IMG/VR virus record: IMGVR_UViG_3300044630_002434
Span: 32,001 to 96,000 of that record
Source: a virus
Strand: one strand, 5' to 3'
DNA length: 64,000 nt
Below the pieces are notes generated by a model, which had not been told where the DNA came from, made no database searches, and saw only the letters and a list, made by a program, of their open reading frames with translations. Below, in pieces: positions 588-34,815 of this stretch. The position numbers and the translations under genes are program-made. Position 1 is the stretch's first letter, and each line of letters starts with the position of its first letter.

Positions 588-1148
588 TCAGTTATCTTTA
601 TACTGTACCGTAATGTGAATAGTTCCGCCAGTACCTGAATCCAAGTAAGACGAGATAGTTATGGCTTCCTTTAGGTAAGCCTTTGCTTCTTCCACTGTGA
701 CCTTAGCCCCAACCATTGAATGCAATGCGCCAAGCGCGAATGATGAACCGCTACCAATACCGTAAATACCTGCAACATCTCTTGCCCAGCAGTAGTCGTT
801 AGCAATTTCATAGACAATCCCATTGACACAAACTATGATGTCAAACTCTTGGTTTCCGTCTTTTGCGTAGCCATTTGTTTCAAAGTAGCCTCTGATTACT
901 GGAATCAGTTTAGTAGAAACAAACTTATCGAGTTTAACTCCACTCAAGTTCTCCGCATCAGGCAAAGGAATGTCCGCAAGTAAGTTCACAGCCCTTAAAT
1001 CTCCCGCTGCGCCTACGAGATAGTTTCCGTTCTTAGATACTTTCTTTATCCCATTTGGTAAAAGATAGACTCTGTTGTCTGAGGAAATCTGAGAGTCGAA
1101 CCCAACAACCGTGAAACCCTCTCCCTGAATTGCTGCAATAGTTGTCAT
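588..1148 (-). CDS. Ntn-hydrolase, HslV/proteasome beta-subunit-like threonine protease
   Basis: N-terminal MTTIAAI (Thr nucleophile), DSQ, K, GAAG and GIGSGS motifs, C-terminal D..TGG. Confidence 0.8.
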   Translation of the reverse strand: MTTIAAIQGEGFTVVGFDSQISSDNRVYLLPNGIKKVSKNGNYLVGAAGDLRAVNLLADIPLPDAENLSGVKLDKFVSTKLIPVIRGYFETNGYAKDGNQEFDIIVCVNGIVYEIANDYCWARDVAGIYGIGSGSSFALGALHSMVGAKVTVEEAKAYLKEAITISSYLDSGTGGTIHITVQYKDN

Positions 1149-2133: not shown

Positions 2134-2174
2134 AAAACTATTATAGAGTATTAACCTGACTTTGTCAAGTTAAA

Positions 2175-2300
2175 CGCCAGACGCGCCACCGAAAGGGGTT
2201 AAGGTGACGCGCCTAGCATTTGTGAGTGGGGAGAAAGGGGGGCAACCCCACTCGTATTCGGAGCATAGGGAGAAGGGAGTAAACCCTTGCTCTACGAACT
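2175..2300 (-). ncRNA. candidate three-hairpin small RNA with C-rich anti-SD loops
   Basis: Stems at 2257-2298, 2224-2253 and 2175-2218; loops UUUACUCCCUUCU, UUGCCCCCCUUUCU, UUAACCCCUUUC; G-U pairs work only on the minus strand; extended -10 TGcTAAAGT at about 2306-2314; no credible ORF. Confidence 0.7.
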
Positions 2301-2447
2301 CCTCTACTTTAGCATAAAAAAATTTCAGTTATGCTTCCGTGTCGGAATTTTTAACAATCTCCGCAGACTGACTTGCTCGAAACTTTCTTCGAGTCAAGCC
2401 CAAACCTTTTACCGCATCTCCAGCAGTTAGTAAAGATAGTCACTACT

Positions 2448-2666: not shown

Positions 2667-2734
2667 TTTGTTTCCCTTCTTTATCGCCCCTTGCGATAAC
2701 TCTATTATAGCATACTTCTTTTTAAGTTGTCAAG

Positions 2735-2985: not shown

Positions 2986-3180
2986 TTAGTTGTCGTTAAT
3001 ACCTAGCAAAGCGAAAATTTCATCTTCGTTTAAGACAGTAACCTTTTCTCCACTATCATCAACAATCTTTACGCTAGTCACGCGGTAAGAGTTAGCAACC
3101 AAGTCACGAACTTCTTGCGCCGTGTTAGCGGTAAAACTGTATTCGTTATCTTTCGACTTCATTGTTACGTTGTAAGCCAT
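2986..3180 (-). CDS. hypothetical protein (64 aa, MAYNVTM...)
   Basis: SD AGAAGGGAG; hairpin downstream. Confidence 0.75.
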   Translation of the reverse strand: MAYNVTMKSKDNEYSFTANTAQEVRDLVANSYRVTSVKIVDDSGEKVTVLNEDEIFALLGINDN

Positions 3181-3237
3181 TTCGTTCTCCCTTCTTGGCT
3201 CTACCCTTTCCGCACTTTGCGGAAAAGTTTTCAGTTT

Positions 3238-3508
3238 ATGAAGTAGGTAGGTGGCTCTCTCAACCACCTGTATGCGCTTCCCCACGCTTCCTATTCGGCT
3301 ACCTACTTCAGTTTTGACTGGCGAACTACGCACCGCACTCCAGTTGTAGTTGTCTTATCTAGTGCAAGACCAGTCAAGTCTTAATAAAGTGAGCCTTGGT
3401 CTGCAATCATTGTTAGGTAGTTGTAGTCAGGCTATTTGCCTTTTCCGTTCACTAACGACCCGTTACCCGTTTATCCTCGGCACTCACTTCGTATCTCTAT
3501 TTAGTTAT
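3238..3508 (-). ncRNA. candidate multi-domain structured RNA (about 270 nt)
   Basis: Own promoter TTGCGA-17-TAGACT (3515-3543); long-range helices 3239-3250/3299-3310, 3314-3321/3370-3377, 3387-3393/3483-3489; no SD-led ORF. Confidence 0.6.
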
Positions 3509-3544
3509 AACCCTAGTCTATCATACTAGGTCTGCTTTCGCAAG

Positions 3545-3623
3545 TCCCAAGAGTAGGAATCGAACCTACCGTGCCAAAGCGAGTGATTTACAGTCACCTT
3601 CCCCACCTTGGGGAATCCTTGGG
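3545..3623 (-). tRNA. tRNA-Tyr(GTA), atypical
   Basis: Acceptor CCCAAGG/TCTTGGG+A, anticodon arm GGTGA-CTGTAAA-TCACT, T arm GTAGG-TTCGATT-CCTAC, long variable region, no encoded CCA; own promoter 3643-3671. Confidence 0.85.
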
Positions 3624-4254: not shown

Positions 4255-4419
4255 TTAGGCGTAGATAACCTTAAACACTAAGTCCATAGCGTGACGCTCG
4301 GCATCTGACCAAGCACTTTCACCTCTAAACTTTTTAACTGTCTTGCCATTGACGCGAACGATACCACTCATTGAATCTGACTCAACGGTGATGCCGTGTC
4401 CATAATCTGTAGTTTCCAT
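4255..4419 (-). CDS. hypothetical protein (54 aa, METTDYG...)
   Basis: Translated by hand; SD GAAAGGGG; flanked by promoter and terminator. Confidence 0.7.
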   Translation of the reverse strand: METTDYGHGITVESDSMSGIVRVNGKTVKKFRGESAWSDAERHAMDLVFKVIYA

Positions 4420-4475
4420 AACTACCCCTTTCGTTATCTCTATTGTAGCGTATTAACCTGACAAATGCAAGTCAT

Positions 4476-4984: not shown

Positions 4985-5458
4985 TTAGAATCTGCGAGCG
5001 CAGACTGGACCAATACCGCGAGCAACCGAAACCTCATCAGTTAGTTCACGACCGCAAGCGACACACACGCCAAACTGCAAACCGTAGTCGCAAGCCTGTT
5101 CAAGAGTCATCTTGTCATTAGCCGAGATAGCGCGAATGTAACTAGGGTCATACTGGAATGACCCCCCAACCAATTTGGTTGCGTATGGGCGACCTGACGA
5201 CTGCGAAATTTTAACGCGGTAGACAACGCCCTCCTTAAAGTAAACGCCGACCTCAAGCGCGACAACTGGCGCGGTAGTGCGTGACTCGCGCGGTGCGTAT
5301 GGAAACGACCGCAGGGTGTCAATGAGGGTACTGGCTTCGCGCTTGGATAGCACGGTGATGTCGCCAATGGTGGCGCGGAATGTGTCCGAAACTTCGCGTG
5401 ACGCGAGCAGGGACTGGGCATACGAGATTTGGCTCTCGGTGGCTTGTGTTGTGTTCAT
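4985..5458 (-). CDS. DUF6011-like zinc-finger protein, leaderless
   Basis: C-terminal CVACGRELTD..S..RGIGPVC motif. Confidence 0.75.
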   Translation of the reverse strand: MNTTQATESQISYAQSLLASREVSDTFRATIGDITVLSKREASTLIDTLRSFPYAPRESRTTAPVVALEVGVYFKEGVVYRVKISQSSGRPYATKLVGGSFQYDPSYIRAISANDKMTLEQACDYGLQFGVCVACGRELTDEVSVARGIGPVCARRF

Positions 5459-8197: not shown

Positions 8198-8445
8198 TTT
8201 GTCAAGTTAGTCAAAATACTCTATGACAACCGCGCCCACGAAAGAAACCGCACCAATTACTAGAGTTGCGATTAGGTAGGTAGGTGTTATAACTACTGGC
8301 TTTAGTAATCCAATAAACATAAGTTGTAGTTCCAGTAATGCCAATGGCAATGAGCCAATAGCAACATAAGTTAGTACGGCTTGTAAGTTAAATAAAAACA
8401 TCTTGCTCTCCTTTTCTTTATCGCCCCTTGCGATAACTCTATTAT
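8198..8445. repeat. copy 2 of exact 248-bp duplication
   Basis: Identical to 1742-1989. Confidence 0.95.
8207..8401 (-). CDS. small membrane protein (64 aa), copy 2
   Basis: Identical to 1751-1945. Confidence 0.8.
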   Translation of the reverse strand: MFLFNLQAVLTYVAIGSLPLALLELQLMFIGLLKPVVITPTYLIATLVIGAVSFVGAVVIEYFD

Positions 8446-12509: not shown

Positions 12510-12791
12510 TTAGGCTACTTCTTCTTCTTCGGCATCAGGGCAAGTAACGCGCCCCCAATAAACGATTGTGTCGTACCCCATTGAGTCGGTACTGCTGTTG
12601 CTGATTAGTTCATCGCGCAGTTCCTCATCTTCTACTAGGCGTGAGATTGCTACGCCAAGTTCTAACAGATTGTGCGCCACAATACCTACGCAACTATCGC
12701 CGAACATTCCGCGCCCTGAATAATCGGCGCGTACACTTCCTTCAACTTCTTGAGCAATTTCTTCAAGTAGTTCGAGTGAGATTGTAAACAT
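12510..12791 (-). CDS. conserved phage hypothetical protein (93 aa)
   Basis: YSGRGMFG..C.GIV and DSMG...IVYW motifs. Confidence 0.8.
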   Translation of the reverse strand: MFTISLELLEEIAQEVEGSVRADYSGRGMFGDSCVGIVAHNLLELGVAISRLVEDEELRDELISNSSTDSMGYDTIVYWGRVTCPDAEEEEVA

Positions 12792-34595: not shown

Positions 34596-34633
34596 GACTT
34601 GACACCGTTCTAGGTTTCTTATAATCTACAGAT

Positions 34634-34815
34634 AGTTCTTGATGTATTAGGTGTTTTCTGCCAGTTCTACTAATACATTAAGACCCTTCGCAGAAATGTG
34701 GTTTGTTCTCCTTTCCTACATTTTTTTGGAAGCGCGTTGTCCCGGCACTTGCGAACACGGGGCACACATAAAAACCGCCCCACCGAATCTAATTCTGCGT
34801 AGGGCGGTTTATTTA
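34634..34815 (+). ncRNA. candidate multi-hairpin small RNA with anti-SD loop
   Basis: Promoter TTGACA-17-TAATCT (34599-34627); stems 34637-34683, 34692-34725 (loop UUUGUUCUCCUUUC), 34738-34764; terminator 34772-34815. Confidence 0.65.

Follow-up and report, generated by a model that had tools for sequence, protein, structure and literature searches.

Does the interval between two early genes of an uncultured lake phage hold a gene for a regulatory RNA and, if so, which messages might this RNA control? The question arises from a 64,000-nucleotide (nt) stretch of DNA, called here the window, which represents bases 32001-96000 of the 119.7-kb IMG/VR virus record IMGVR_UViG_3300044630_002434 (completeness estimate 89%). 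An initial annotation of the window had placed three adjacent stems at 2175-2300, with loops complementary to Shine-Dalgarno (SD) sequences, and had read them as a multivalent phage riboregulator. We recovered these stems, with the same three loops, at 2172-2301 on the minus strand. The element is almost certainly a conserved structured RNA gene and, judging from its sequence features, it probably encodes a trans-acting small RNA (sRNA) of ~130 nt in an uncultured freshwater actinophage.

A conserved three-hairpin RNA family

Folding of both strands of 2165-2310 gave -67.3 kcal/mol for the minus strand, against a shuffle mean of -40.3 (z -6.77, 0/200 shuffles as low), and -50.2 kcal/mol for the plus strand (z -2.01, 8/200 shuffles as low). 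The three-hairpin fold thus lies on the minus strand, in agreement with the strand preference proposed initially. With the ends fixed at 2172-2301, the minimum free energy (MFE) structure was exactly the three-hairpin fold, with loops UUUACUCCCUUCU, UUGCCCCCCUUUCU, and UUAACCCCUUUC. The features of the predicted gene and its borders are the following.

2172-2301, minus strand: predicted sRNA gene, ~130 nt, with three hairpins, the last being the terminator (covariance model R2, 125.1 bits, E 3.7e-20)
2256-2299, minus strand: hairpin 1, with outer stem GUUCG/CGAAU, middle stem GAGCA/UGCUC, and inner stem GGG/CCC; loop 1, UUUACUCCCUUCU, at 2271-2283
2224-2253, minus strand: hairpin 2, with the 8-bp stem GAGUGGGG/CCCCACUC; loop 2, UUGCCCCCCUUUCU, at 2232-2245
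2172-2221, minus strand: hairpin 3, the predicted terminator, with 14 conserved pairs (2177-2216); loop 3, UUAACCCCUUUC, at 2191-2202; tail GUUUAACUU
2306-2314, minus strand: extended -10 box TGCTAAAGT (TGnTAnnnT), with no TTGACA-like -35
2140-2168, minus strand: promoter of the next early gene, consensus TTGACA-17-TATAAT (12/12 matches), beginning 4 nt past the sRNA end

The third stem had been described as ~15 bp long and able to pair fully only on the minus strand, through G-U pairs. The strand argument holds, since four G-U pairs become A-C mismatches on the plus strand; the length is better given as 14 conserved pairs, with up to 19 in the MFE structure of the window.

To build the family, IMG/VR loci were fetched around homologues of two neighboring proteins. 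BLAST combined with reading of the sequences revealed the same three-hairpin element in relatives whose HslV-like neighbor is only ~48-57% identical. For a first covariance model, the structure was set by hand on two sequences, the window's and that of its closest relative; its hits were re-aligned and the model was rebuilt to give R2. The full element, hereafter type A, was recovered by R2 at E <= 1.6e-11 in 16 IMG/VR contigs; this number includes the record from which the window was taken, and five of the contigs came from a scan with a DNA pattern. A second pattern scan, of metagenomes, gave 17 stretches; R2 recognized the element in 14 of them, several of which are the same contigs under other names, and a further IMG/VR pattern scan yielded 11 stretches, every one on contigs already known. 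The match is single-copy in the 119.7-kb genome.

In the resulting alignment (26 rows, 18 of them distinct), 98.2% of 597 cells were standard pairs and 18 of the 34 pairs had changed on both sides. Both values were reached in 0/500 column shuffles, and pairing fell to 38-47% when the partners were slid by 1-3 columns. The alignment was fitted to the covariance model and is therefore biased toward the structure; the stem sequences of hairpin 2, however, are wholly different between lineages, a pattern that model fitting could not create. The outer, middle, and inner helices of hairpin 1 were paired in 100, 100, and 81.5% of cells, respectively, with compensatory changes. Hairpin 2 was paired in 99.3% of cells, with 7/8 pairs altered on both sides, and hairpin 3 in 100%, with 6/14 pairs altered on both sides. 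The G-U pairs of helix 5 recur across the family, which fixes the transcribed strand.

The loops behave differently from the stems. TTnCTCCCTT was invariant in loop 1 of the 18 distinct sequences, and in loops 2 and 3 CCC followed by TT was invariant or nearly so while the stems changed; the conservation of the loops expected from the initial annotation was thus observed, with YCCCUU kept across the family. These sites are predicted to be accessible, the CCCUU sites being unpaired at a probability of 0.77-0.99 in 11 homologues folded individually. In the window, the unpaired probability was 0.83 for the CCCUU site of loop 1 and 0.99 for loop 2. RNAalifold, run on a plain MAFFT alignment, instead paired the GAGC/GGG strand with the conserved CUCCCUU, a structure that we rejected because those pairs never vary. 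The open-loop fold was favored by structure-aware alignments, by the MFE with exact ends, and by a C-G to U-A change in one lineage, a second lineage having a C-A mismatch.

The family appears to be confined to a clade of uncultured lake phages, as suggested by the lack of R2 matches in named phages and species genomes. R2 gave 0/5 matches at E <= 1 in five named actinophages (DSL-LC01, Cece, Big4, Atuin, and Sixama), the positive control on its own genome having worked, and a hairpin scan of 12.6 kb of the DSL-LC01 early arm detected nothing similar. An exact-pattern scan of 185,579 species genomes returned five stretches in unrelated organisms, of which R2 confirmed 0/5, providing neither a bacterial copy nor a clue to the host. 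Searches of GenBank phage DNA produced no near or distant match. In the covariance search of Rfam that had been proposed for this locus, no family attained its gathering score anywhere in the 64-kb window, and 1900-2700 gave no match even at E <= 10.

Weak R2 matches (E 0.03-0.23) were obtained at a further 12 loci, ~320-425 nt upstream of the HslV-like gene. This type B RNA is shorter than type A: its box reads TAAACT or TAAAGT, its first hairpin has the loop UUAAUCCCCUUUU, and a second hairpin precedes a plain terminator, both hairpins bearing CCCCUU loops. The second one, GAGC...CCCCUUC...GCUC, looks homologous to hairpin 1, and the two type B lineages differ through compensatory stem changes. 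The carriers (L015, L013, L016, L021-L030, and L034) form a sister group of lake phages.

Transcription signals, neighborhood, and host

On one side the element is bordered by the stop of a 72-aa gene (2448-2666), and on the other by the promoter at 2140-2168, which belongs to the next gene and marks the 3' boundary of the sRNA unit. TGnTAnnnT was present in 14/14 distinct homologues examined, ending 4-8 nt ahead of the first model position, again with no TTGACA-like -35. In most relatives UUAGUUUUU or UUUUUU comes after the third hairpin, and in the homologues the TTGACA consensus promoter of the next gene comes ~5-25 nt after the terminator. By these sequence signals, a promoter and an intrinsic terminator surround a non-coding conserved structure, as in a stand-alone sRNA gene. 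Both signals of the sRNA were missing from our standard lists because the simple sigma-70 scan needs a -35 and the terminator scan accepts loops of up to 8 nt, against 12 nt in this terminator.

The plausible genes around the element are all on the minus strand, where short early genes are densely packed, each behind a consensus promoter of its own. The immediate neighbors in the window are small ORFs (open reading frames) without Pfam match. In relatives, the gene directly after the sRNA mostly encodes a protein of ~195-210 aa with a sigma-70 region 4 / helix-turn-helix (HTH) match (L007:8444-9073, L005:8142-8735, and L012:8602-9186), which is absent from the corresponding place in the window. 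Elsewhere in the early arm, the gene at 588-1148 (minus) encodes an HslV / proteasome-like Ntn protease subunit (Pfam Proteasome, E 1.9e-07), common in related lake phages (87 confirmed stretches), and the gene at 4985-5458 (minus) a DUF6011 protein. The tRNA/tmRNA search detected a single gene, tRNA-Tyr at 3544-3623 (minus). In one lake metatranscriptome, the contig of a relative reached a word depth of 122 over 3387-3491, ~10x that of neighboring pieces. This depth hints that a structured RNA in the corresponding region of the window (3238-3508), next to tRNA-Tyr, is abundant.

A copy of a polar motif, AACTGAAATTTTTT, stands directly upstream of the sRNA -10 box and extends to it. In the genome, this motif, AACTGAAATTTT(TTA), occurs 23 times on the minus strand and 4 times on the plus strand. 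Among the former, 21 fall within the early arm (window 1-21400), between a terminator-like run and the following promoter (for instance at 1742, 2329, 3929, 4929, 6425, 8712, and 9109), and the relatives L005, L006, and L082 also hold many copies. We rejected AACTGAAATTTT as a promoter class, as no -10 box follows its copies at a constant distance.

The DNA polymerase and TerL are 75.7 and 76.8% identical, respectively, to those of Actinomycetia phage DSL-LC01, assembled from a lake metagenome, followed by Microbacterium phages (57-61%) and then by Arthrobacter and Gordonia phages. The annotation of DSL-LC01 includes a WhiB gene; its published description predicts an Actinomycetia host and also notes this gene (PMC10611076). 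On the basis of these protein sequences, the phage is an actinophage.

Loop complementarity and possible functions

The three loops match ribosome-binding sites (RBSs) and leader hairpins of the phage's own early genes, as in the following examples.

3187-3195, minus strand: candidate target AGAAGGGAG, 7 nt ahead of the start at 3180; 9-nt perfect complement of loop 1
4424-4432, minus strand: candidate target GAAAGGGGU, 5 nt ahead of the start at 4419; 9-nt perfect complement of loop 3
2681-2699, minus strand: leader hairpin UUAUCGC-AAGGG-GCGAUAA, whose pentaloop complements CCCUU; identical copies at 1962-1980 and 8418-8436

The initial annotation had reported the first of these sites before the genes starting at 3180 and 12791. 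It is present at 3180 only, 3187-3195 being the sole minus-strand occurrence of the 9-mer; ahead of 12791 the sequence is AGAAGGAGAG. The complement announced before 4419 was found, and GAAAGGGGT sits 5 nt ahead of that start.

Beyond single sites, AAGGG was present in the SD window of 20/45 early-arm genes (minus-strand genes, window 1-21400) vs 10/117 others (Fisher 7.6e-07). A perfect match of at least 8 nt to any of the three loops occurred at the RBS of 15/45 early-arm genes vs 3/115 other genes, two antisense pseudo-ORFs having been removed from the latter set. When the loops were shuffled within themselves, 15 early genes were reached in 7/2000 trials (mean 3.1); outside the early arm this test revealed no deficit or excess. 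Middle and late genes use GGAG-type sites, which mismatch CCCUU at the A, and the RNA could thus tell early from later genes, suggesting early shut-off. Hairpins with purine pentaloops (AAGGG, AGGGA, and AAAGG) number 11 on the minus strand of the early arm vs 1 on the plus strand. They are located in 5' leaders right behind early promoters, have variable stems, and are complementary to CCCUU, UCCCU, and CCUUU, which occur in the loops of the sRNA. When RNAcofold was run on the sRNA together with 11 leaders, the energies were no better than with shuffled leaders, a result that is uninformative because the method cannot pair inside hairpin loops.

The same association was seen among related loci. 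AAGGG made up 125/382 of the SD windows in type A loci (n=12, mean GC 0.46) and 134/304 in type B loci (n=11, mean GC 0.41), vs 100/1121 in loci without model match (n=57, mean GC 0.455), the GC content being similar in the three groups. Five loci without match nevertheless had a high AAGGG share. For two of them, L013 and L016, the model had overlooked a type B RNA, and L017 has a 9-bp hairpin with loop UCCCCCCCUUUCU (C7UUUCU-loop); two of these three have full 10-kb flanks and one has ~2.3 kb of upstream DNA. In the remaining two, L003 and L009, the upstream DNA is missing. DSL-LC01, the nearest named relative and without model match, had 0/33 AAGGG sites at annotated starts in the stretch of early arm examined. 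AAGGG pentaloop hairpins numbered 37 in 374 kb of type A loci vs 9 in 1352 kb of no-match loci. As a separate observation, purine-pentaloop leader hairpins in general were four-fold denser in type A loci than in loci without the type A sRNA.

By analogy with 6C/B11 and alpha-r14, in which this mechanism has been demonstrated by experiment, we think it fairly probable that the sRNA acts by loop-mediated pairing at RBSs, as a multivalent base-pairing repressor. Transcription would start at the conserved extended -10 promoter and stop at the third hairpin, while each of the three loops, open according to folding and conservation, presents the invariant YCCCUU(Y). The loops would pair with purine-rich RBSs of AAGGG type and with the AAGGG/AGGGA pentaloops of 5'-leader hairpins, and such pairing would exclude the ribosome; any one of the three loops may suffice, and a chaperone would not be needed. 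The likeliest targets would be the phage's own AAGGG-rich early mRNAs, leading to damping or shut-off of early genes, and host mRNAs with G-rich RBSs may also be hit. That early phage mRNAs are the main targets is a tentative proposal, drawn from the site counts and somewhat less likely than not. A more elaborate scenario is that the phage clade evolved a private "dialect" of early-gene RBSs, in which AAGGG marks both the SD sites and the loops of leader hairpins at the 5' end, and with it a three-loop CCCUU RNA to match. Accumulating RNA would then silence early mRNAs by multivalent loop-loop and loop-SD pairing and spare GGAG-type middle and late genes. The outcome would be an RNA-only temporal switch that does by antisense pairing what RegB does in T4, and that relies on the principle of 6C, from the host phylum. 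We consider this scenario unlikely as a whole.

Several observations weigh against pairing with early phage mRNAs or against a stand-alone transcript. The gene calls behind the counts given above came from a crude ORF-plus-SD rule that itself scores SD strength. Early-arm RBSs are generally stronger, and the energy that the loops gain relative to a generic anti-SD motif did not differ between early and other genes (p 0.36). Among relatives, descent confounds the association of AAGGG sites with the RNA, since the phages that carry it are closest to one another and represent few independent events; the carrier L015 has AAGGG at 1/13 sites only. The SD type of orthologous early genes switches freely between AAGGG and AAGGAG, and no phage gene in the orthologue comparison keeps an AAGGG-type site across relatives, hence no conserved specific target. 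With no single conserved phage target, the loops would owe their strict conservation to a multitude of simultaneous targets, or to targets in the host. The window's own terminator has a longer stem and a tail of only GUUUAACUU, a weak U-tract. Finally, 24 sequencing runs hold parts of the region, three of them labeled as RNA and present as assembled contigs only, with small shares. Two of these contigs, X22 (2220-2516) and X23 (2261-2715), from lake RNA libraries and from relatives ~92-96% identical, join the upstream early gene to hairpins 1-2, and neither is a discrete small RNA; X24 misses the element. These contigs neither support nor refute an sRNA: strand, ends, and level are not visible in them, and they fit read-through or contaminating DNA equally well. 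They leave room for read-through from the upstream promoter. What stands of the multivalent riboregulator proposed initially is thus a conserved RNA gene with promoter and terminator signals, anti-RBS loops, and an excess of early-arm matches; the target cited at 12791 does not, nor is any AAGGG site kept among orthologues.

Other functions were considered for the same element. CsrB and RsmZ display repeated GGA loops for CsrA, and the three YCCCUU loops could similarly serve as a sponge or decoy for a host or phage RNA-binding protein, which would be titrated or recruited. The repetition of one short motif in three open loops, on stems that vary, is an architecture just as typical of RNAs that sequester proteins, and a sponge would be in line with the lack of a conserved mRNA target. 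We nevertheless regard a sponge as rather improbable: the motif exactly complements the over-represented AAGGG sites of the phage, which would be unexpected for a protein site, and no candidate pyrimidine-loop-binding protein is encoded nearby, the adjacent genes encoding the sigma-70 region 4 / HTH DNA-binding protein in relatives and small ORFs without Pfam match in the window. The bridging RNA-library contigs raise the alternative of a 3' module that acts in cis on the upstream early mRNA (gene 2448-2666) and that would terminate and stabilize this mRNA, or mark its processing sites, without any function in trans. It would also agree with the terminator nature of the last hairpin in relatives, and with the lack of any minus-strand terminator-like site from the gene end (2448) down to the element. 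This alternative has a low probability in our view, given the extended -10 box at a fixed distance in all homologues examined, and the pattern of invariant loops on drifting stems, which is the opposite of what a purely structural stabilizer would need. In addition, the upstream neighbor varies among relatives, whereas the element and the downstream promoter remain.

Toxins cutting the anti-SD region exist, and the loops could mimic the pyrimidine 3' tail of 16S rRNA in order to absorb a host nuclease or toxin attacking this tail during abortive infection. Anti-SD-like loops are indeed shown three times, and a second RNA candidate at 34599-34815 has a loop, CUCCUUUC, still closer to the anti-SD tail. 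However, the conserved motif is CCCUU, whereas the rRNA tail has CCUCC as its core, the motif fits the AAGGG sites of the phage better than it fits the rRNA, and no defense or toxin context was found; such a decoy therefore seems very improbable to us. Protein-coding genes on the opposite strand deserve practically no credence. The region had been called ORF-free, which is correct for the minus strand, where no ORF of at least 30 aa overlaps the element, but not for the plus strand, where two short ORFs (2204-2317 and 2287-2430) do so. Both lie behind strong SD-like sequences at the proper distance, and their purine runs could pass for RBSs. These apparent RBSs are the antisense of the loops, and the two ORFs are not coding: a 1-nt indel relative to a 95%-identical relative falls inside the first one (2204-2317), the family varies in length between 116 and 131 nt with indels that are not in threes, the stem substitutions are compensatory, and all the neighboring genes are on the minus strand.

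The second sRNA candidate, on the plus strand at 34599-34815, has a TTGACA-17-TATAAT promoter followed by four hairpins, one of which has a 10-bp stem and the loop UUUGUUCUCCUUUC, resembling an anti-SD of GGAG type. Its fold reached -54.5 kcal/mol (z -2.97). Sites of AAGGAG type, which the CCCUU RNA mismatches, would be complementary to this second RNA.

Comparison with known regulatory RNAs

The initial annotation had suggested an undescribed system. This is too strong: the element belongs to no described family and is a new phage-borne one, but it is of a known kind, that of sRNAs displaying anti-SD or C-rich loops. The regulatory RNAs known to be encoded by phages come, almost without exception, from enterobacterial phages and a small number of others. 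Our literature searches, whose coverage excluded most subscription journals, found, judging from listings and abstracts, no description of an actinophage sRNA with C-rich or anti-SD loops, and the word stems "actino," "mycobacter," and "C-rich" are absent from a 2025 review of phage-derived sRNAs. The element represents a conserved, well-delimited sRNA family in lytic-type lake actinophages, and it yields a clean covariance model for annotating such phages.

Among host-encoded RNAs with comparable loops, RsaE/RoxS and RNAIII of Firmicutes carry C-rich motifs (UCCC/CCCC) in loops or single strands and repress through pairing with the SD. They are host genes that differ from the window element in phylum, fold, and motif, and they gave no Rfam match here. 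In phage T4, the RegB endoribonuclease inactivates early mRNAs through the SD, cutting GGAG. RegB is a protein nuclease and not an antisense RNA, so that the parallel with the proposed early shut-off would be functional only. If early phage mRNAs are indeed the targets, the sRNA would time the infection cycle by simple, RNA-based means; if host mRNAs are targeted, it would imitate a global regulator of the host.

Since the phage is an actinophage, the comparison with 6C drawn initially is apt, 6C/B11 (RF01066) belonging to the host phylum inferred for the phage and opposing C-rich loops to G-rich RBSs. In mycobacteria, 6C binds G-rich RBSs and G-rich 5'-untranslated region loops via its C-rich loops, without chaperone (PMC6486639). 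For B11, the same pairing has been proven by compensatory mutations, either loop being enough (PMC10470900). 6C is chromosomal and has two loops with runs of 6-7 C, whereas the window element has three CCCUU loops; a C6-C7 run occurs here only in loop 2 of the window and of its closest relatives, the family core being CCC then UU. The gathering score of RF01066 (47 bits) was not reached in the 64-kb window, and its model gave 0 matches at E <= 10 in the 119.7-kb genome, a weak test as the Corynebacterium glutamicum control matched below the cut-off.

The nearest architecture is that of the alpha-r14 sRNAs ("cuckoo"; NfeR1, CcsR1-4; Rfam ar14), with three hairpins, a shared unpaired anti-SD motif, and divergent stems, all of which are found here. 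The alpha-r14 RNAs are three-hairpin sRNAs with an ultraconserved anti-SD motif in each hairpin and variable stems; the motifs act redundantly in silencing at the RBS, independently of Hfq (PMC10746234), and we propose the same principle for the phage RNA. The alpha-r14 motif given there, CCUCCUCCC (PMC10746234), is absent from the window element, which has YCCCUU(Y) in its place, and the alpha-r14 Rfam model did not match the element at E <= 10 (1900-2700). The alpha-r14 genes are chromosomal genes of Alphaproteobacteria, whereas the window element is carried by a phage of actinobacteria. The principle of displaying such loops is common to the phage RNA, to 6C/B11 of the host phylum, and to the unrelated alpha-r14, which makes the phage family a case of convergent design.

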